Part shown: positions 1 to 63,622 of the stretch, in pieces
Layout: each line of letters starts with the position of its first letter
Position numbering within the stretch: position 1 is the stretch's first letter
NCBI GenBank assembly: GCA_050951725.1
Contig: JBMNJO010000001.1
Span: 924,967-988,966, forward strand
DNA from: Syntrophomonadales bacterium
Lineage (GTDB): Bacteria; Bacillota; Syntrophomonadia; Syntrophomonadales; DTU052
DNA length: 64,000 nt
Direction: 5' to 3'
Made by a program: the position numbers and the translations under genes
The notes under the pieces: generated by a model
Databases searched by the model: none
What the model was told of the DNA's origin: nothing
The model's input: only the letters and a program-made list of their open reading frames with translations

Positions 1-744
1 CAGTTGAACCAGGGCTCCGTTGCTGTCTCCAAACACCAGGTGGTCAACCTGGGCCAGGGCCTGCAGCACCTTTTCCCAGTTTGTTATCCGATTCCTCTCC
101 GCCAGCAGTTCCTCATCCTCACCCTCCACCAGGGCCGCCGCTTCAATCTCGCAGATCTGGTAATCGATAAACTCCATATCCTGGATCCGCTGTCCCATGG
201 TGGCCTGCAGTTCCTCAATGCGGTTGACGGTCGACTTCCATTCGTGGTAGATGTCAGCCAAACGGGGTGCTATTTCTCTGATGTCAGGGGAGAGACAGTC
301 CAGGAACTGTCGGTGAAATCGGGGGTTTAAGACCTGCTGGTTGGCGTTCTGCAGGTGGATGTCAACCAGGTATTCGGCCAGGTTTTTCAGCATGGCCGCA
401 GTGACGGTGCGCCCGTTCACCCGGTTGATGGTTCGCCCCTGAGGGGTAATCTCGCGGCGTATTATCAGGATATCATCATCATCCTCCCACAGGCCTTCCT
501 CCTGCAGGAACTGACACAACGGGGAATCTATCGCTACCTCGAAGACTCCTTCAACCAGGCATTTACTGCTATGGTCCCGGATTACACCTGAATTGATACG
601 CTCACCCACCAGGAGTTCCAGGCAGTCAACAACAATCGATTTGCCGGTGCCGGTCTCCCCGGTCAGGACGTTCAGTCCTTCCCTGAATTGCAACCGCAGC
701 TCATCGATCAGGATCATATTCTTTATGTACAGTTCTCGAAGCAC
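1..744 (-). CDS. recN: DNA repair protein RecN, N-terminal part (gene continues past the left edge)
   Basis: Not in the ORF track because it runs off the window. The reverse-complement translation from GTG at 744 reads MLRELYIKNMILIDELRLQFREGLNVLTGETGTGKSIVVDCLELLVGERI, with Walker A GETGTGKS. It sits downstream of argR, as in Bacillus and Clostridia. Confidence 0.85.
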   Translation of the reverse strand, partial: MLRELYIKNMILIDELRLQFREGLNVLTGETGTGKSIVVDCLELLVGERINSGVIRDHSSKCLVEGVFEVAIDSPLCQFLQEEGLWEDDDDILIIRREITPQGRTINRVNGRTVTAAMLKNLAEYLVDIHLQNANQQVLNPRFHRQFLDCLSPDIREIAPRLADIYHEWKSTVNRIEELQATMGQRIQDMEFIDYQICEIEAAALVEGEDEELLAERNRITNWEKVLQALAQVDHLVFGDSNGALVQL

Positions 745-3806: not shown

Positions 3807-5696
3807 TCATATCCCCCTGACAGCTCTTAATCTTTTTAACTCCGGCCAGCGGTTAACCACCGATTCCACCACTGCGGAGGGCTCAAGACCCACATCCTGC
3901 AGGAGGCGGGTAACCGCCCCATGCTCCACAAACGAGTCGGGAATCCCCATATGCAGGAATTCCACCTCCACTCCTTTCGCATTCAAGGCCTCCGACACCC
4001 CGCTGCCAAAGCCTCCCATCAATACATTCTCCTCCAGGGTAATCACACGCCGGCAATGACTGGCCCAGAAACTGATCATACTCTCATCCAGAGGCTTAAC
4101 GAACCGGGCATTGATTACCGCAGCTGATATCCCCAGATCCCGCAGGTAGTTCGCAGCTTCCCGGGCTATGCTTACGGTTCGGCCAATAGCTATAAGCAGG
4201 ACGTGGTCACCCTCCTGCAGCAACTCAGCCTCACCCGGGCCAATGAAGTCAGGCGTTTCCTTGATATCTATCCCTATCCCGCTGCCCCGGGGATAACGAA
4301 CGGCTACCGGCTGATTGTAATGCAGGGCCGAATCCAGCATATCGTTCAATTCATCCTCGTTGGCCGGGGCCATAACGATCATGTTCGGTATCTGCCGCAG
4401 GTAGGAGAGGTCAAACACTCCGTGATGGGTAGGACCGTCCTCACCCACCAGTCCCGCCCGGTCAATCGCAAAGACTACCGGCAGGTTCTGCAGGCAGACA
4501 TCATGGATAACCTGGTCAAAGGCCCGCTGCAGAAAGGTGGAGTATATCGCCACCACCGGTCTCACACCGCCCCGGGCCAATCCCGCTGCCATGGTAACCG
4601 CATGCTCTTCACAGATACCAACATCATAAAACCGTTTCGGGAATTTATGCGCAAACAGGTCAAGCCCGGTACCGCTGGTCATGGCAGCAGTTATCCCGAC
4701 CAGTCGCGGATCAGTTTCCGCTTTCCTGACCATGAACTCACCAAACACCTGGGTATAAGTTTTGGCCCCAGATTTCAGGGTTTTTCCGGTCGCCACGTCA
4801 AACGGGCCGATGCCGTGGAATACATCCGGGTTCAGCACCGCGGGAGGATAACCTTTTCCCTTTTCGGTTATCACATGGATAAGTACCGGCCCCTTTATAT
4901 GCCGCGCCTTCTGAAACATCACTATCATATCTTCAATATTGTGGCCATCAATCGGCCCTAAATACGTGAACCCCAGTTCCTCAAACACTATCCCGGGCAC
5001 GATCAGGTATTTCACCATATCCTTTATCTTGCCCGCAGCCTTCACCAGATTGGCACCAATCCCCGGAATTCTCAAGAGGGCCTGTTCCACCTCTTCTTTT
5101 CTCCGGGTATATGCCGGGTCCATACGGAGTTTGGCGAGATAACCGGATAGTGCTCCCACATTAGGGGATATCGACATGGCATTATCATTGAGGACCACAG
5201 TAAGATCAAGACCGAGGTGACCGGCATGGTTCATGGCCTCGAAGGCCATGCCTCCCGTCAACGCCCCGTCACCGATAACCGCCACCACCGAATGATGGTC
5301 ATCTCCTAAATCACGGGCCAGGGCCAGTCCGACGGCCGCCGAGATCGAGGTGCTGCTGTGACCGGTATTGAATGAATCATAAGGACTCTCATCCACCCGC
5401 GGAAATCCGGAAAGGCCACGATGCTGGCGCAGGCTGGCCATGCGATTAATCCTTCCGGTGAGCATCTTATGTACGTAGCTCTGGTGGCCCACATCCCATA
5501 TAATCTTGTCCTGCGGCAAGTCGTAAACGTAGTGCAGTGCCAGGGTAAGCTCCACCACGCCCAGGTTGGCTGCCAGGTGACCGCCGGTCCGGGCTACCGT
5601 GTTAACCAGGAGTTCCCTGACCTCCTGAGATAAAACCCTCAGCCGGGCTGGAGGAAGTTTTTTTAAATCCGACGGGTTATTGATATTCTCTAGAAT
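3807..5696 (-). CDS. dxs: 1-deoxy-D-xylulose-5-phosphate synthase
   Basis: The track ORF starts at an internal Met (5558). The upstream in-frame sequence ILENINNPSDLKKLPPARLRVLSQEVRELLVNTVARTGGHLAANLG is the conserved Dxs N-terminus. There is no ATG, GTG or TTG between the upstream stop (5703-5705) and this conserved sequence. ATT at 5696-5694 follows AAGGTGA by 6 nt. Confidence 0.9.
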   Translation of the reverse strand: MLENINNPSDLKKLPPARLRVLSQEVRELLVNTVARTGGHLAANLGVVELTLALHYVYDLPQDKIIWDVGHQSYVHKMLTGRINRMASLRQHRGLSGFPRVDESPYDSFNTGHSSTSISAAVGLALARDLGDDHHSVVAVIGDGALTGGMAFEAMNHAGHLGLDLTVVLNDNAMSISPNVGALSGYLAKLRMDPAYTRRKEEVEQALLRIPGIGANLVKAAGKIKDMVKYLIVPGIVFEELGFTYLGPIDGHNIEDMIVMFQKARHIKGPVLIHVITEKGKGYPPAVLNPDVFHGIGPFDVATGKTLKSGAKTYTQVFGEFMVRKAETDPRLVGITAAMTSGTGLDLFAHKFPKRFYDVGICEEHAVTMAAGLARGGVRPVVAIYSTFLQRAFDQVIHDVCLQNLPVVFAIDRAGLVGEDGPTHHGVFDLSYLRQIPNMIVMAPANEDELNDMLDSALHYNQPVAVRYPRGSGIGIDIKETPDFIGPGEAELLQEGDHVLLIAIGRTVSIAREAANYLRDLGISAAVINARFVKPLDESMISFWASHCRRVITLEENVLMGGFGSGVSEALNAKGVEVEFLHMGIPDSFVEHGAVTRLLQDVGLEPSAVVESVVNRWPELKRLRAVRGI

Positions 5697-6299: not shown

Positions 6300-6890
6300 A
6301 TAAGTAGAATAAAGCGGAGGTTACCCCCTGAGTAAACGCTGTGACTTAGGTCCAGCAGGTTTTCCCGTTGAACATCCTGCTTGTCGCCAAGCAGGCGGTT
6401 TCCCTTTACGCTCAACCCGTGTTGTCGCCGTACACGAGGCTGGATTACCACTTAGTGCACACTTTAATCCCCAGAGGGTCGTGCCTGGCACACAGTCTAG
6501 GGGATTTCCCCGACAACCTCTACCAATTCTTAGCCTCTTTTGCAGCAGGGGTTTCAGAAGAGGGAAAACGGAACCGTGGCCATCGGTCTCCGTACCTCTA
6601 TAACTCATCCGCCCATACCACTCAAGGCAGGCTACACTGCACCCAGCTTCCTACCAGATGCAGGTTTTCCCGAAGGATTGCTCCTTCGAGCCTCCACGGG
6701 TGGGGGGTCAGTTCCCGCATGCCGTTGCAGGCTGCCCCGGCACCCTTAACTCCCAGCACCAACCCCCAACTGGGCGTTGAAAGCTGACACCAGAATCTTC
6801 ATCGATGTGCCCTATAACGGATTTTTAGGCCCGTCTTCAGAATTGGTGAGATTGACTAGAATACTGCAACCTCCACCCATAATTCTAATT
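6300..6890 (-). ncRNA. ole: OLE (ornate, large, extremophilic) RNA; ends approximate to about 40 nt
   Basis: About 590 nt with only short, mutually overlapping ORFs on both strands. The segment is GC-rich with dense local complementarity. It lies between a promoter and oapA, followed by dxs-tlyA-nadK-argR-recN, which is the known ole synteny. Confidence 0.75.
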
Positions 6891-23462: not shown

Positions 23463-23584
23463 TTTCAACCTCGCCCGGATTTTTCCTTATTATATATTAA
23501 CCTCCGACCCCGTTCAATTACCTGCTAAACACCCAGGGACGTTAAGTCATCATGAGATGAAGCTGTTCAGCTTGCAGGGAAACT

Positions 23585-23810
23585 TAAGCATGATTCCCCG
23601 CGAAAACCCAGGAGGCGGTTGGCGTAGCATGGTAGCAACGGTGAAGGCTCACGGCGAAAGGGGGCGAGCCCCATGGACGGGGCGAGAGGGCCACTGAACA
23701 CGGACATGAATTGGCCCGGTGCCCCATTCGTCGTGAGACAAGCAGTTGGTGTTGCCCATGTGAAGTCTGGCGACGAATATTTATGCATCCAAACTCCGAA
23801 TCGCAACTTT
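23585..23810 (-). repeat. structured intergenic repeat, copy E2 (strand tentative)
   Basis: Shares the GTTTGGATGCATAAATATTCGTCGCCAGACTTC terminus and internal blocks with the other copies. It is bracketed by a perfect 13-nt direct repeat, TTGCAGGGAAACT, at 23572-23584 and 23811-23823. Confidence 0.6.
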
Positions 23811-23910
23811 TTGCAGGGAAACTATTAACTCGTTTGCAAACGCAGGAGCCAAGCTCATTCGATTGCTGGACGAGCCGGATGAACGGATGGTGTCCAAAAA
23901 GGAAGGACGG

Positions 23911-58563: not shown

Positions 58564-59388
58564 TTAAAAAGTGTATCCCATGCCGCTCCCGCCTTTGCTG
58601 ACCCTGGTTCCCAGTTCCCCGTATATCTGCGCGGCAGCGAAAAAGCCGGTGCAGTGGCTTACGGCAATTGTCTCCATATCGTATGACCGAAGTTGGTCAA
58701 TAGTCTTTCTCATCCTTGCTTCGTTGGCATTGATAAGATGGGTCCCTCCAATCCAGGCCTTGATCCTGTCAACCCCGGTCAGCGTCCTGGCATATTCTAT
58801 AGTGTTGATCATTCCAGCATGGGCACATCCACTTATTATGATAAGACCGTCAGGATGCTTGATAAAAAGGGCCTGGTCGTCATCGAAATTGTCGGTTTCC
58901 ATCTTTCCATCCACCTCAACACCAAAGTTCCCACCGGTGTCTTCAAAATCATTGGTACGGGGTATGGATCCGGACAGGATAACCCCCGGCATCAGTTCAA
59001 CCGGGCTGTCGTTGTACACCAGGTTGGCACCTTTCTTTTCCAGTTCCTCTGGTCGAGGCATGCCGATAAAGATCCTCTGATCACCGGCCAATGAGTATTT
59101 GGGTAGGGGAGCTTTACTATGTATATATACATCTCTGGGCCCCAGATATTCGAGGACCGGTGGCAATCCTCCGACGTGGTCAAAATGACCGTGACTGATG
59201 GCTATGAGTTCTACAGCCTGGGGTGGTATTTGCATCGTCTTTAGGTTTCTGACCAGGCCATCCGCCATGCCCGTATCAAATAGTATTCCCCGACCGTCAA
59301 CTCTAACCAACATCCCCAGACCATATTCGCCTACTACGCCGGGAATTGGAGTCGAGTTCTCTATGAGAACAGTCACGTCTACCTTCAT
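58564..59388 (-). CDS. MBL-fold metallo-hydrolase
   Basis: Start moved to MKVDVTVLIENS (GGGGGAATGGTGG RBS). It has the SHGHFDHVGG motif. Confidence 0.8.
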   Translation of the reverse strand: MKVDVTVLIENSTPIPGVVGEYGLGMLVRVDGRGILFDTGMADGLVRNLKTMQIPPQAVELIAISHGHFDHVGGLPPVLEYLGPRDVYIHSKAPLPKYSLAGDQRIFIGMPRPEELEKKGANLVYNDSPVELMPGVILSGSIPRTNDFEDTGGNFGVEVDGKMETDNFDDDQALFIKHPDGLIIISGCAHAGMINTIEYARTLTGVDRIKAWIGGTHLINANEARMRKTIDQLRSYDMETIAVSHCTGFFAAAQIYGELGTRVSKGGSGMGYTF

Positions 59389-59570
59389 CCACCATTCCCC
59401 CTTTCTGTAGTAATGATACCTTAATTTCCCGGAAAGCACACCCCCTTCCTGCTGTACCAGACAGGCGGGAACTACGGTCAAAGTGGGACAGGGAAACAGG
59501 TTCGCTGACCTGCTTTTCCGAAAGCAGCAGGACTGTAACAGGTACTTTCCGATTAAATCTTGAGTCTAGA

Positions 59571-59773
59571 GCCTGCGCAAAATTCCGGTGAGCGGACGTT
59601 GTATCCGAACGCCGCCGCACCCTGCTGAGCGACGGTGGAAATCAACCAAGCGACAGGACGCGAGATAAGTTTTTGTGACATGGACGAATAGAAGGAGTGA
59701 TGCTCGCCACCTGAACCTGAGCATTTGGCGTTACCAGTGCAGGACCCAGGAACGAACGGAATTTGCGCACGCC
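59571..59773 (-). repeat. structured intergenic repeat, copy R4 (strand inferred from wobble pairs)
   Basis: 203 nt. The terminal arms GCCTGCGCAAAATTCCG and CGGAATTTGCGCACGCC pair with each other. It is closely similar to copy R5 throughout. Confidence 0.65.
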
Positions 59774-59854
59774 GCTGCACATGAAGCCAGCTGTAGTCCT
59801 CCGCCCAGCATTCAATATTGAACAGTGAACTCGTCCCCTGTCCCACCTGCTGGT

Positions 59855-61870
59855 CTACCGTGAGAGGTTTTTCCACCAGTCCAACAGTTTCTGAATGCGG
59901 GGAATGGTTTTGCTTTCGTCGGTGGTATCTTCGTTCCCGCCCAACCAGTTTTCCCAGTTCCACCAGTAGTCCTGTTCCTGGTGCTCGTAACAGATTTGCT
60001 GGGGTTCGCTGCCGGTTAGGAACGCGGCTTCTATAGTGCGGGGACAGTTTTCGGTGGCAATCAACCCGGTATCAAGGTCAATCCGGGCCCTTACAATTCC
60101 CTGGGGTACCCTGAACTCCGATCGGGGCTGGTCTTCGAGAGCGGCCCCCATGAAACGGGCCCAAATAGGGCCGGCTATTCTGCCGCCGGAAAGGCCCACC
60201 GACCTGGCCTGTGAGTCATATCCCACCCATACGGCACAACTTAGTAACGGGGTATAACCGACAAACCAGGCATCGCGGTATTCCTGCGTGGTTCCGGTCT
60301 TGCCGGCTGAGGGACGTCCCACAGTGGAAGCCAAGTGAGACCCGGTTCCCCCGGACTGCATGACACCGGTAAGCATATCTGTGGTAATATAGGCATTTTG
60401 CGGGCTGATTATCTGCTCGGTTTGAGGCTCATTGGTTTCCAGGACCCGACCGTCAGCATCGGTCACCTTGAGAACAGCCACCGGTGTGACCAGTCGTCCA
60501 TCATTGGCGAACACTCCATAAGCAGAGGCCATCTCCAAAGGGCTTACCTCTGAGGTACCCAAAGCCAGTGACAAATATGGTTTTATCGGCCCCTCAAACC
60601 CAAATTTTCTGGCATGTTCGGCGGTCCTTTCCGGGCCTACCGCCTCATTTAACCTCACCGAAACAACGTTGTCGGAAACCATAATTGCTTCCTTCAAGGT
60701 GAATGGGCGGTAATGATACCCCTCATCTCCATAGTCAGTCGGCGCATAATCTGGTGCGCCCTTCTGCGGAAAACTCACTGGTTCACACATTATCATGTCA
60801 GCCGCAGTCAGACCCACATCGATGGCTTTGGAATAGAGGAATGGCTTGAATGCAGATCCCGGCTGCCGTTTGCTGTCCACCGCCCGGTTAAAAGGTGCGG
60901 TAACAAAGTCCCGTCCCCCAATCATCGCCCGAATATGGCCATTACTGGGATCAACCGCCACCAGGGCTGCCTGCAGCTCGTCGTTCTGGCTGGACAAGAC
61001 CTCATCATATGCTTGCTGCGCTTTTCGCTGCATGTCCAGGTCCAGGGTAGAAAAGACCCTCAGTCCCCCTCCGTAAGCCACAGCCGCCCCATACTTTTCT
61101 ACCAGATAATCGGCCACCATTTGTGAAAAATAGGGGGCGTCCCCACGGAGCGCCCCAGTTTTACGGTACTTCAGTTCCTCAGCGACGGCTGCTTCTTTCT
61201 CTTGCTCTGTAATAAACCCGAGTTCAACCATCTGGCTGAGTACCACCTGCTGCCTGGTCTTGGCGTGTTCCGGATAGCGATAAGGATCATAATAACTCGG
61301 CCGCCGCGGGATAGAGGCGATGATAGCACTTTCTGCCAGGCTCAGCTCCCGGGCCGGTTTGCCGAAGTAGGTTCTGGCAGCGGCCTCTATGCCGGTGGCT
61401 CCCTGTCCAAAGTAGATGGAATTAAGGTACATGGTAAAAATCTCATCCTTTGAAAAACGCCTCTCGAGGGCCATGGTATAGAACAGTTCTTTGAATTTGC
61501 GCACAAAGGTCCGCTCATGAGTCAAATACAGATTTTTAGCGGTTTGCTGGGTGATGGTGCTGCCACCCTCGGTCACCCGCCGGTTCTTGATGTTTACCCA
61601 GGTGGCTCGGGCCAGGGCCCGGGGATCAATCCCGATATGACTGTAAAAATTTCGGTCCTCGGTGGCGATGAATGCCTTTTCCACATAATCCGATATCTCG
61701 TCTAGACTAACCTGGTTTTGATTTTGGGGGTTTAGGCTTTTGATCTCCTGCCCATTGATATCATAGAGGATTGAGGGCTCTGGCATCCGCAGTCCCGGAA
61801 GTCCCCAATTGAACCCCAGGATGGCAACCAGTCCCAACAGCAGGATGATAACCAGTATGATTCTTTTCAC
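59855..61870 (-). CDS. class A penicillin-binding protein (PBP1A: transglycosylase/transpeptidase)
   Basis: 671 aa with an N-terminal TM segment, GT51 motifs (EDRNFYSH, GGSTITQQ), and transpeptidase motifs SAFKP and KTGTT. Confidence 0.9.
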   Translation of the reverse strand: MKRIILVIILLLGLVAILGFNWGLPGLRMPEPSILYDINGQEIKSLNPQNQNQVSLDEISDYVEKAFIATEDRNFYSHIGIDPRALARATWVNIKNRRVTEGGSTITQQTAKNLYLTHERTFVRKFKELFYTMALERRFSKDEIFTMYLNSIYFGQGATGIEAAARTYFGKPARELSLAESAIIASIPRRPSYYDPYRYPEHAKTRQQVVLSQMVELGFITEQEKEAAVAEELKYRKTGALRGDAPYFSQMVADYLVEKYGAAVAYGGGLRVFSTLDLDMQRKAQQAYDEVLSSQNDELQAALVAVDPSNGHIRAMIGGRDFVTAPFNRAVDSKRQPGSAFKPFLYSKAIDVGLTAADMIMCEPVSFPQKGAPDYAPTDYGDEGYHYRPFTLKEAIMVSDNVVSVRLNEAVGPERTAEHARKFGFEGPIKPYLSLALGTSEVSPLEMASAYGVFANDGRLVTPVAVLKVTDADGRVLETNEPQTEQIISPQNAYITTDMLTGVMQSGGTGSHLASTVGRPSAGKTGTTQEYRDAWFVGYTPLLSCAVWVGYDSQARSVGLSGGRIAGPIWARFMGAALEDQPRSEFRVPQGIVRARIDLDTGLIATENCPRTIEAAFLTGSEPQQICYEHQEQDYWWNWENWLGGNEDTTDESKTIPRIQKLLDWWKNLSR

Positions 61871-62262: not shown

Positions 62263-63237
62263 ATGATCAAGACCTATTTTTATAAGCATGCCGATAATTC
62301 CATGTATCATGACGTCGACCTTTCTCTTTTGGATGTTCTCCTTTCTGACCAGGAAAACCTGTTGTGGATCGACCTCTATGACTGTTCGGTTCAGGAACTG
62401 ACTTATATCGGCAAGGTATTCAGTTTCCATCCCCTGGCCCTGGAGGACTGTCTCCAGGAGAGCCCGCGCGCCAAGGTTGACCACTACGAGGATTACAGTT
62501 TTTTCGTATTCCACGCCATGAAGTACAACGAAGAGGCTGAGGATGACGAGATAACCAGCATTGAACTGGATGTATTCCTGGGCACCAATTACGTGGTGAC
62601 CATCCACCCCACCGCACTCTACGCGGTCGGCGAAATCGCCCGGGTAAGCCTCAGGAAACCGGAAATGATGAACCGGGGACCTGATTACCTCCTCTATAAT
62701 ATTGTTGATAAATTGGTTGATGATTATTTCCCCATCGTTGAGCGATTGGGGGAGAGGATTGATGAACTGGAAGACGAGATGTATGTACACCCGGCCAAAG
62801 AGATTACGGAAGAAATTATGGCCCTCAAACGCTCCATTATCCTCTTACGAAAAGTTGTAATCCCGCAGCGCCGGATACTGGCCAATGTCAACAACCGGTA
62901 CTCATTTTCGGTTAGCGACGAGAACCGCCCCTATTACTATGACCTGGTGGAGCACCTGGACCGGATTATCGACGCCTCGGATGCCTACCGGGATCTGGTT
63001 AACGGCTCGATCAACACCTACTATTCAGTAGTATCCAGCCGTACCAACGAGATCCTGATGGTGCTGACAGTTATCTCCACCATCATGATGCCTCTGACCT
63101 TCATCACCGGACTTTACGGCATGAATGTCCATATCCCGGGACAGGATAACCCTTACTACTTCTGGTACATCGCGCTCGGCTGCGTCACCCTCATAGCCAC
63201 CATGCTGGCCACCTTCCGCCGCAAAAAATGGATATAA
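62263..63237 (+). CDS. corA: CorA-family magnesium/cobalt transporter
   Basis: 324 aa with the YGMN motif followed by two C-terminal TM helices. Confidence 0.9.
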   Translation: MIKTYFYKHADNSMYHDVDLSLLDVLLSDQENLLWIDLYDCSVQELTYIGKVFSFHPLALEDCLQESPRAKVDHYEDYSFFVFHAMKYNEEAEDDEITSIELDVFLGTNYVVTIHPTALYAVGEIARVSLRKPEMMNRGPDYLLYNIVDKLVDDYFPIVERLGERIDELEDEMYVHPAKEITEEIMALKRSIILLRKVVIPQRRILANVNNRYSFSVSDENRPYYYDLVEHLDRIIDASDAYRDLVNGSINTYYSVVSSRTNEILMVLTVISTIMMPLTFITGLYGMNVHIPGQDNPYYFWYIALGCVTLIATMLATFRRKKWI

Positions 63238-63250
63238 GAAATGGGACAGA

Positions 63251-63276
63251 GGGACAGATCTACTGTCCCATTTTTT
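63251..63276 (+). terminator. intrinsic terminator after corA
   Basis: GGGACAGATCTACTGTCCCATTTTTT. Confidence 0.8.
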
Positions 63277-63288
63277 GCTGCAGCTAAG

Positions 63289-63499
63289 GCCTGCGGTAAA
63301 TTCCGGTGAGCGGATGTTGGGTCCGAACTGTGCAACACCCTGCGAAGCTGAAGATGGAAAGCAGCCGAGCGACACGAGGTCGCGAGATAAGCCTTTTAGA
63401 CATGGACGTCGATTAGGCGGGGTGCTGCTTTCCACCTGAATCTAAGCAGTTGGTGCTGCCAGCGCAGGACCCAGGAAGCGAACGGAATTTACCGCAGGC
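63289..63499 (-). repeat. structured intergenic repeat, copy R5 (best preserved; strand inferred from wobble pairs)
   Basis: 211 nt with a perfect 17-bp terminal stem, GCCTGCGGTAAATTCCG / CGGAATTTACCGCAGGC. An internal 14-bp helix joins 63352-63365 and 63424-63437. Confidence 0.7.
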
Positions 63500-63622
63500 C
63501 GACGCGCGCGTAACCAGTAAACTCCCCGCACCAAGAAAACGGAAACAAGGGATCCAAGCCCCTTGCTTCCATATCCTGCATTGCATCACGGGGACAGTCC
63601 CCGTGATGCAGTTTGCTTCCGT

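Follow-up and report, generated by a model that had tools for sequence, protein, structure and literature searches.

In the window, by which we mean the whole 64-kb stretch of DNA that was analyzed, a 466-nt spacer separates a class A PBP gene (PBP1A; transglycosylase and transpeptidase by Pfam; 59855-61870, minus strand), whose 3′ end points towards the spacer, from the gene of an MBL-fold hydrolase (Pfam Lactamase_B; 58564-59388, minus strand). The spacer holds R4, a degraded copy of a ~220-nt rod-shaped RNA element, placed by the covariance model R1, which has R4 in its training set, at 59568-59778 of the plus strand (155.8 bits). An earlier note, made from the sequence, had bounded the element at 59571-59773, which was nearly right, as the model is slightly wider, and its distance of 183 nt from R4 to the MBL start codon (59388) was exact. 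The terminal stem (P1) that it described, GCGCAAAATTCCG / CGGAATTTGCGC, does exist: by sequence and alignment pairing, the 5′ arm GCCTGCGCAAAATTCCG (59571-59587, plus strand) pairs with the 3′ arm CGGAATTTGCGCACGCC (59757-59773, plus strand), leaving one bulged A.

A remnant of the conserved tip of the element, comprising the inner stem and two hairpins, lies at 59638-59707 (plus strand). It was matched by the core model R2, built without R4 and without the third copy of the window, Rx, at 33.7 bits (E 2.4e-6); many of its pairs are non-standard, and 3 nt are deleted in two places. In the alignments, hairpin 1 survives as GCG-ACAGGA-CGC (59650-59661, plus strand), where a 3-nt deletion shortens the stem from 5 to 3 bp and the GGA of the loop is kept. 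Hairpin 2 survives as GAC-AUGGA-CGA (59677-59687, plus strand), where the loop sequence AUGGAC is present, GUC, the 3′ strand of the stem, is deleted, and the tandem G.A is gone (UGA to UGU).

Smaller features surround R4. Perfect 11-nt inverted repeats, GTGGGACAGGG / CCCTGTCCCAC, at 59483-59493 and 59836-59846 flank the entire R4 insertion, and a perfect 7-bp hairpin, CTGCTTT-TCCG-AAAGCAG (59510-59527), lies in a ~40-nt stretch upstream of R4 that is missing from N1 and M1, two copies in related genomes. A 28-nt block immediately ahead of the MBL start codon (59409-59436; AGTAATGATACCTTAATTTCCCGGAAAG on the plus strand) is nearly invariant in all relatives, distant ones included, and contains the inverted repeat TTTCC-N-GGAAA. 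This block may be the MBL gene's own operator or promoter region, and its position between R4 and the start codon suggests that the MBL control region is proximal to R4. The exact MBL-fold protein was recovered on Logan contigs, seven of which are 100% identical to the window while one (L066) differs by one mismatch. Beside Lactamase_B, the protein has a weak precomputed Pfam match to Anti-Pycsar Apyc1 (PF23023), and homologues are named dihydropterin-related synthase in some sources.

Copies in the window and in related genomes

Within the window, blastn with 59541-59800 as the query returned a single match, R5 (63289-63501, 76-77.9% identity, E 4e-31), and nhmmer supports the homology of R4 and R5 (E 1e-75 and 1e-82). 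The close relationship reported by the earlier note is therefore well founded, and the sequence blocks that it quoted are all in place in both copies and occur as a cluster nowhere else in the window. R5 is a structurally intact paralogue (63286-63505, plus strand; 252 bits with R1 and 101.6 bits with R2), which starts 12 nt past the terminator-like hairpin of corA (62263-63237, plus strand) and is followed by the terminator of a convergent DUF1256 gene.

The covariance model run with filters off also found Rx, a third and divergent element (R1, 23629-23760, plus strand, 23.6 bits), which R2 matches over its full model length (23656-23729, plus strand, 31.8 bits, E 7.5e-6) and whose loops are AUGGAC and ACGGAC. 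The Rfam model TwoAYGGAY matches the same place (23620-23768). Rx sits in a lineage-specific insertion of ~360 nt (23550-23910) between ydcZ and nurA, and the site is empty in close relatives (L110-L114). The insertion also contains TTGCAGGGAAACT twice, at about 23571 and 23811, and GGA motifs are frequent in its 3′ part, at about 23860-23910 (UGGAC, CGGAU twice, AGGAA, and AGGAC).

Outside the window, a metagenome scan gave 21 loci, of which one was genuine (L084) and the other 20 were chance matches. L084 comes from a related organism and covers the syntenic corA-PBP1A-MBL-LonC region; its 696-nt PBP1A-MBL spacer holds two tandem copies, M1 and M2, that are 96% identical to one another. One intact copy, N1, occupies the PBP1A-MBL spacer of L105, among the contexts of MBL homologues, and a 60%-identical copy, S1, lies between a VTT-domain gene and tRNA-Arg, ~5 kb off, in L100/L101. 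These four intact relatives (M1, M2, N1, and S1) all come from Syntrophomonadales metagenomes. Three further contigs (L093-L095) start within a copy that lies 115 nt ahead of the MBL gene.

The element is missing from the MBL-upstream spacer in six genomes (L092, L103/L104, L097, L100, L107, and L108), which keep the MBL gene and whose spacers are short (about 60-196 nt) or otherwise element-free. In L092, a ~30-bp perfect hairpin fills the empty site in place of an R4-type element. The more distant MBL-synteny loci (L107-L109) and the nurA-synteny loci (L110-L114) yielded no additional copy. A scan of genomes, one per species, with the pattern GGTGAGCGGA-N130-160-GGACCCAGGAA gave three chance matches, all without nhmmer support, in MAGs of Actinomycetota and Acidobacteriota; three patterns run against viral contigs gave chance matches only, and blastn against phage and plasmid collections gave no match. 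The family is probably small and restricted to the Syntrophomonadales lineage.

The duplicated unit apparently extends past the terminal stem on both sides, by ~47 nt upstream (TGGGACAGAGG...) and by ~40 nt downstream. In L084, a terminator-like hairpin with a T-run (GGGGACTGGTTCTCTCCCC ATTTT; 4418-4434, minus strand) separates M1 from M2, and the hairpin and T-run CCCATTTTTTGCT ahead of R5 resembles this separator and may thus be part of the duplicated unit and not of corA. The Logan assemblies L063, L065, and L066 break inside R5 (window 63345-63353) and L093-L095 begin inside the element, a hint either that those genomes hold more copies of this kind or that the long palindrome was hard to assemble.

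None of the copies was found to be preceded by a sigma-70-type promoter, nor was there a promoter motif common to all of them, and a terminator-like hairpin lies downstream of M1 only. By eye, an extended −10-like site (TGgTATAGT) is seen ~50 nt upstream of S1. The motif GGGACA-N17-TnnnAT recurs ahead of R5, M1, and N1, with GGGACAG-type motifs before R5 at 63243-63269, a recurrence that may only reflect recent common ancestry.

Other identities of the element were also considered. The overlapping ORFs (136, 205, and 191 aa) have no Pfam match, and a coding reading was rejected because M2 and N1 carry a frame-breaking 1-nt indel relative to M1 and R5. An intrinsic terminator was rejected as well, the U-tract after the rod being missing on both strands, and 6S RNA, SRP RNA, riboswitches, T-boxes, HEARO/omega RNA, and retron ncRNA are absent from the Rfam matches even at E ≤ 10.

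Fold, covariation, and strand

R5, M1, and S1 fold independently into one common shape, with z-scores of −7.4, −8.7, and −5.5. When intact, the RNA forms a long rod of helices P1-P4, at whose tip a three-way junction bears two short hairpins with GGA-containing loops. The loop of hairpin 1 follows A(G/C)GA(G/C), being AGGAG, AGGAC, or ACGAG in the intact copies, and that of hairpin 2 follows AUGGA(C/U/G), being AUGGAC, AUGGAU, or AUGGAG, above a tandem G.A. The enclosing inner stem P4 and the UGA...GAA beside hairpin 2 are present in R5, M1, M2, N1, S1, and Rx. Fixed loop and junction nucleotides include CGAG on the 5′ side and GAG on the 3′ side of hairpin 1, as well as UGA...GAAU on both sides of hairpin 2, followed by GG(G)GUGC. 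M1, M2, and N1 each keep 72 of the 74 consensus pairs, R5 keeps 70, S1 63, and R4 51.

In a model-guided alignment of five copies, 90.4% of the cells are paired and 20 of the 74 pairs are compensated on both sides, compared with 6.2 ± 1.9 in shuffles (0 of 500 reaching the observed value) and 0-4 with the partners slid, 19 pairs are compensated and 94.6% of the cells paired when R4 is left out, and 9 of 20 pairs are compensated in a tip-only core alignment that includes Rx (2.2 ± 1.1 in shuffles), all these being counts from few sequences in alignments fitted to the model, with most of the signal coming from the long branch of S1 and from Rx. Covariation, which the earlier note had proposed to seek by covariance modelling with more copies, is thus supported, with 19-20 compensated pairs where shuffles give about 6. 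The stem of hairpin 1 takes the forms GCGAC/GUCGC, GGAC/GUCC, and GCCCC/GGGGC; the inner stem of hairpin 2, GAC/GUC and GCC/GGC; its outer stem, GCC/GGC and GUC/GAC; and the inner stem of the rod, GCAGC/GCUGC and GGGGC/GCCCC.

Four of the five intact copies favour the plus sense of the window by 11-18 kcal/mol. The minimum free energies are −124.7 (sense) vs −106.8 kcal/mol (antisense) for M1, −128.3 vs −109.7 kcal/mol for M2, −123.1 vs −112.4 kcal/mol for N1, and −101.0 vs −84.1 kcal/mol for S1, while those of R5 are about equal (−111.7 vs −113.6 kcal/mol). The consensus pairs of the intact copies hold 17 G.U against 7 A.C (3 A.C against 1 G.U in R5 alone), and every Rfam TwoAYGGAY match, like the conserved GGA loop motifs, is in the plus sense. 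The G.U pairs, the folding energies, and the Rfam matches favour a family RNA that would be read from the plus strand of the window, antisense to PBP1A and MBL. The same sense is antisense to both flanking genes for R4, M1, M2, N1, S1, and Rx.

These results also bear on whether the elements are MITE- or REP-like non-autonomous mobile DNA palindromes without an RNA function, R4 being an old insertion, which we judge unlikely. MITE- and REP-type palindromic repeats include bcr1 of the Bacillus cereus group, ERIC, and Correia elements. The R4 family shares with them an intergenic location, a length of about 100-250 nt, terminal inverted repeats (the 17-bp one resembling a TIR), a patchy presence in relatives, and a predicted RNA fold. 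Every copy is an insertion relative to related genomes, the location shifts between close relatives, L084 shows a tandem duplication, and several Logan contigs end within the element. However, comparing the flanks of R4, R5, M1, M2, N1, and Rx with empty sites revealed no target-site duplication, no transposase gene lies nearby, and the phage, plasmid, and viral collections hold no match. In the DNA compared, the copy number is low: there are three copies in 64 kb, 75% identical or less, and two in ~33 kb of the L084 genome (loci L084 and L110), with none in 65.6 kb of L110 and L112-L114. The pairing is strand-asymmetric and divergence is compensated down to 60% identity, as S1 keeps 63 of the 74 consensus pairs through compensatory changes. 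The strand asymmetry in the folding energy of S1 is as expected for selection on RNA rather than on DNA, and the loop and junction nucleotides are conserved while the stems vary.

Erosion of R4

R4 is the most degraded of the copies compared. Its lineage-specific changes number 36, of which 27 fall in paired and 9 in unpaired columns, against 5-12 in R5, N1, and M1, so that 18% of the paired and 12% of the unpaired columns are changed. Relative to the majority of its intact relatives, 26 of its pairs are changed, of which 23 are broken, 2 compensated, and 1 a wobble; one of the compensated changes lies in P1 (consensus G-C to C-G, alignment columns 11/208). Five of the 13 pairs of P4 are non-standard. 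Threaded through the consensus, R4 reaches only −28.8 kcal/mol, where close relatives reach −105 to −121 kcal/mol, its own plus-strand fold barely beats shuffles (z −1.9), and at E ≤ 10 it matches neither TwoAYGGAY nor any other Rfam family. The stem differences from R5, read by the earlier note as compensated, are therefore mostly losses. The inner helix GGTGG/CCACC is present in R4 as the note said, but is not an R4 innovation: it is ancestral, common to M1 and N1, and R5 is the mismatched copy. R4 is most likely a decaying paralogue.

The loss of structure has not removed the GGA motifs, of which R4 has 8 in 211 nt, the highest density among the three copies of the window, and 2 on the other strand, so some binding activity could persist. 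By comparison, the hairpin 1 loop of R5 is ACGAG, its GGA lost despite an intact structure. It is quite unlikely, in our judgement, that R4 is still functional in a remodelled form, in which the rod, opened by mutation, would expose its 8 GGA, R4 serving as a less structured, GGA-rich decoy or as antisense to the PBP1A-MBL intercistronic region. The plus-strand density, which amounts to 9.5 GGA per 250 nt where the window mean is 3.97 ± 2.07, and the retention of GGA in both tip loops speak for such a role, but coding sequence in the window reaches comparable counts (up to 13 per 250 nt), the distribution of changes over paired and unpaired columns bears no sign of selection, and no promoter was found.

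The earlier note had placed R4 on the minus strand, arguing that an A.C mismatch in a helix CAAGC/GCTCG becomes a G.U wobble on that strand. These letters are present, but they form no helix of the family: in the other copies, CGAGC falls in the junction and in the 5′ strand of hairpin 1, and the segment said to pair with it is part of the long inner stem. Since the pairing is found only in R4 and joins segments of different helices, the argument rests on chance pairing. Taken alone, R4 does fold slightly better on the minus strand (−73.0 to −75.2 kcal/mol, z −3.0, vs −68.6 to −68.8 kcal/mol, z −1.9, on the plus strand), and its consensus pairs hold 7 A.C against 3 G.U. Together with its place between the two minus-strand genes, after PBP1A and 183 nt ahead of the MBL start, this would fit a functional minus-strand RNA acting in cis as a 5′ leader or intercistronic element of the MBL transcript, which is nonetheless very unlikely, as the intact copies favour the opposite strand, antisense to MBL, by energy, G.U pairs, and Rfam matches, the element is missing from the spacer in six relatives that keep the MBL gene, homologous copies are found in three spacers elsewhere (after corA, next to tRNA-Arg, and between ydcZ and nurA), the helix CAAGC/GCTCG is not conserved, and the nearly invariant 28-nt block sits between R4 and the start codon.

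Likeness to known RNAs and proposed role

At Rfam gathering thresholds, the whole window yields only OLE RNA and one tRNA, and nothing at R4 or R5. The OLE RNA is full length (6301-6888, minus strand, 484.6 bits, E 4e-139), which is consistent with an anaerobic Firmicute source. Below the thresholds, TwoAYGGAY (RF01731) is the best Rfam match by score in all intact copies, over model positions 1-168 and on one strand, with 25.4 bits for R5, 27.4 for M2, 24.4 for M1, 20.8 for S1, 27.9 for N1, and 21.5 for Rx, a range of 20.8-27.9 bits for the intact copies, all of it short of the 43 bits that Rfam sets for gathering. Known from Clostridiales, gamma-Proteobacteria, and human gut samples, TwoAYGGAY was discovered bioinformatically (Weinberg et al. 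2010, PMC2864571). It was put forward as a CsrA-binding sRNA of Clostridia, acting through its two GGA loops, and its tandem G.A has also been remarked on (PMC4333381).

Like TwoAYGGAY, the R4 family has a long enclosing stem, two neighbouring tip hairpins with A(Y)GGA(Y) loops, a tandem G.A beneath the second loop, and similar junction nucleotides (A-AGCA ... GG-UGC), and it occurs in Clostridia-type Firmicutes with no single downstream gene. Unlike TwoAYGGAY, it has in hairpin 1 a 5-nt loop (AGGAG, AGGAC, or ACGAG) and not AYGGAY, Rx excepted (AUGGAC and ACGGAC), so that two adjacent AYGGAY loops were found neither in R4 nor in the intact copies other than Rx. At 220 nt the element is also longer, and it has a 17-bp terminal stem and three more helices. 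The R4 family is thus best called a TwoAYGGAY-like variant, which would work as that class does but, by the Rfam score criterion, is not a member of RF01731.

The Csr and Rsm sRNAs (CsrB, CsrC, RsmY, and RsmZ; clan CL00106) offer a second comparison. CsrA binds with high affinity to GGA in a short loop closed by AC/GU-type pairs, the consensus being RUACARGGAUGU. The R4 family likewise presents GGA in short hairpin loops with such closing pairs, as in GAC-AUGGAC-GUC and GCGAC-AGGAG-GUCGC, and its GGA sites, ~30 nt apart, would suit one CsrA dimer. M1, M2, N1, S1, and Rx each have two loop-exposed GGA sites and R5 has one, and the elements carry 6-9 GGA in the sense direction vs 2-6 in antisense, a modest enrichment. 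In contrast to the Csr and Rsm sRNAs, which have 5-22 repeated sites, the rod of the R4 family has only two loop-exposed sites, and it has neither a GacA/UvrY-type promoter nor a clear terminator. A tblastn search with the CsrA of E. coli and B. subtilis found no csrA in the 64-kb window or the syntenic loci, and our literature search found nothing usable on csrA in Syntrophomonas.

Another two-hairpin RNA, Bacillaceae-1 (RF01690), has a reverse complement that matches the CsrA-binding motif (PMC4333381). In L105 it gave a weak match (137-199, plus strand; 18.8 bits, E 0.44), antisense to the N1 core. This match falls far short of the threshold, its strand is the opposite one, and Bacillaceae-1 lacks the long rod.

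We consider it likely that R4 is a decayed paralogue of a small family of ~220-nt structured plus-strand RNAs in the Syntrophomonadales, TwoAYGGAY-like in their tip, of which the intact copies would most likely be trans-acting RNAs that bind a protein of the CsrA type. On this model, the intact RNAs would act in trans by holding one dimer of a CsrA-like protein that recognizes GGA loops, each tip hairpin binding one subunit and the rod providing stability. The PBP1A-MBL spacer is apparently the older locus, as relatives carry intact copies there. R5 is 89% identical to M1 and R4 only 77%, though R4 occupies M1's locus; read most simply, R4 would be the decaying copy at the older locus: once the intact copy R5 had been established behind corA, R4 may have lost constraint and begun to decay.

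For annotation, this means that R4 should be labelled neither as an MBL leader nor as a functional minus-strand RNA. TwoAYGGAY has been an orphan class since 2010, the sole functional idea being that of a CsrA sponge in Clostridia, and the locus adds a divergent TwoAYGGAY-like branch missed by the Rfam threshold. The branch offers an extended rod, clear compensatory evolution, and a history of gain, duplication, and loss that is readable in close relatives. It also provides a compact set for a comparison of CsrA binding, with intact copies, one that has lost a GGA loop, and one that has collapsed structurally.

The known antagonist of CsrA in Firmicutes is a protein, FliW, and we know of no sRNA sponge of CsrA that has been validated in this phylum. 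A bolder reading, which we hold as a tentative and rather doubtful possibility, is that the intact R5, Rx, M1, M2, N1, and S1 form an unrecognized, lineage-specific family of CsrA-titrating sRNAs in a Firmicute order, with R4 as its fossil. If true, it would mean that such sRNA genes duplicate, move among intergenic spacers, and decay, and it would give Csr control an sRNA arm where only the protein antagonist FliW is established.
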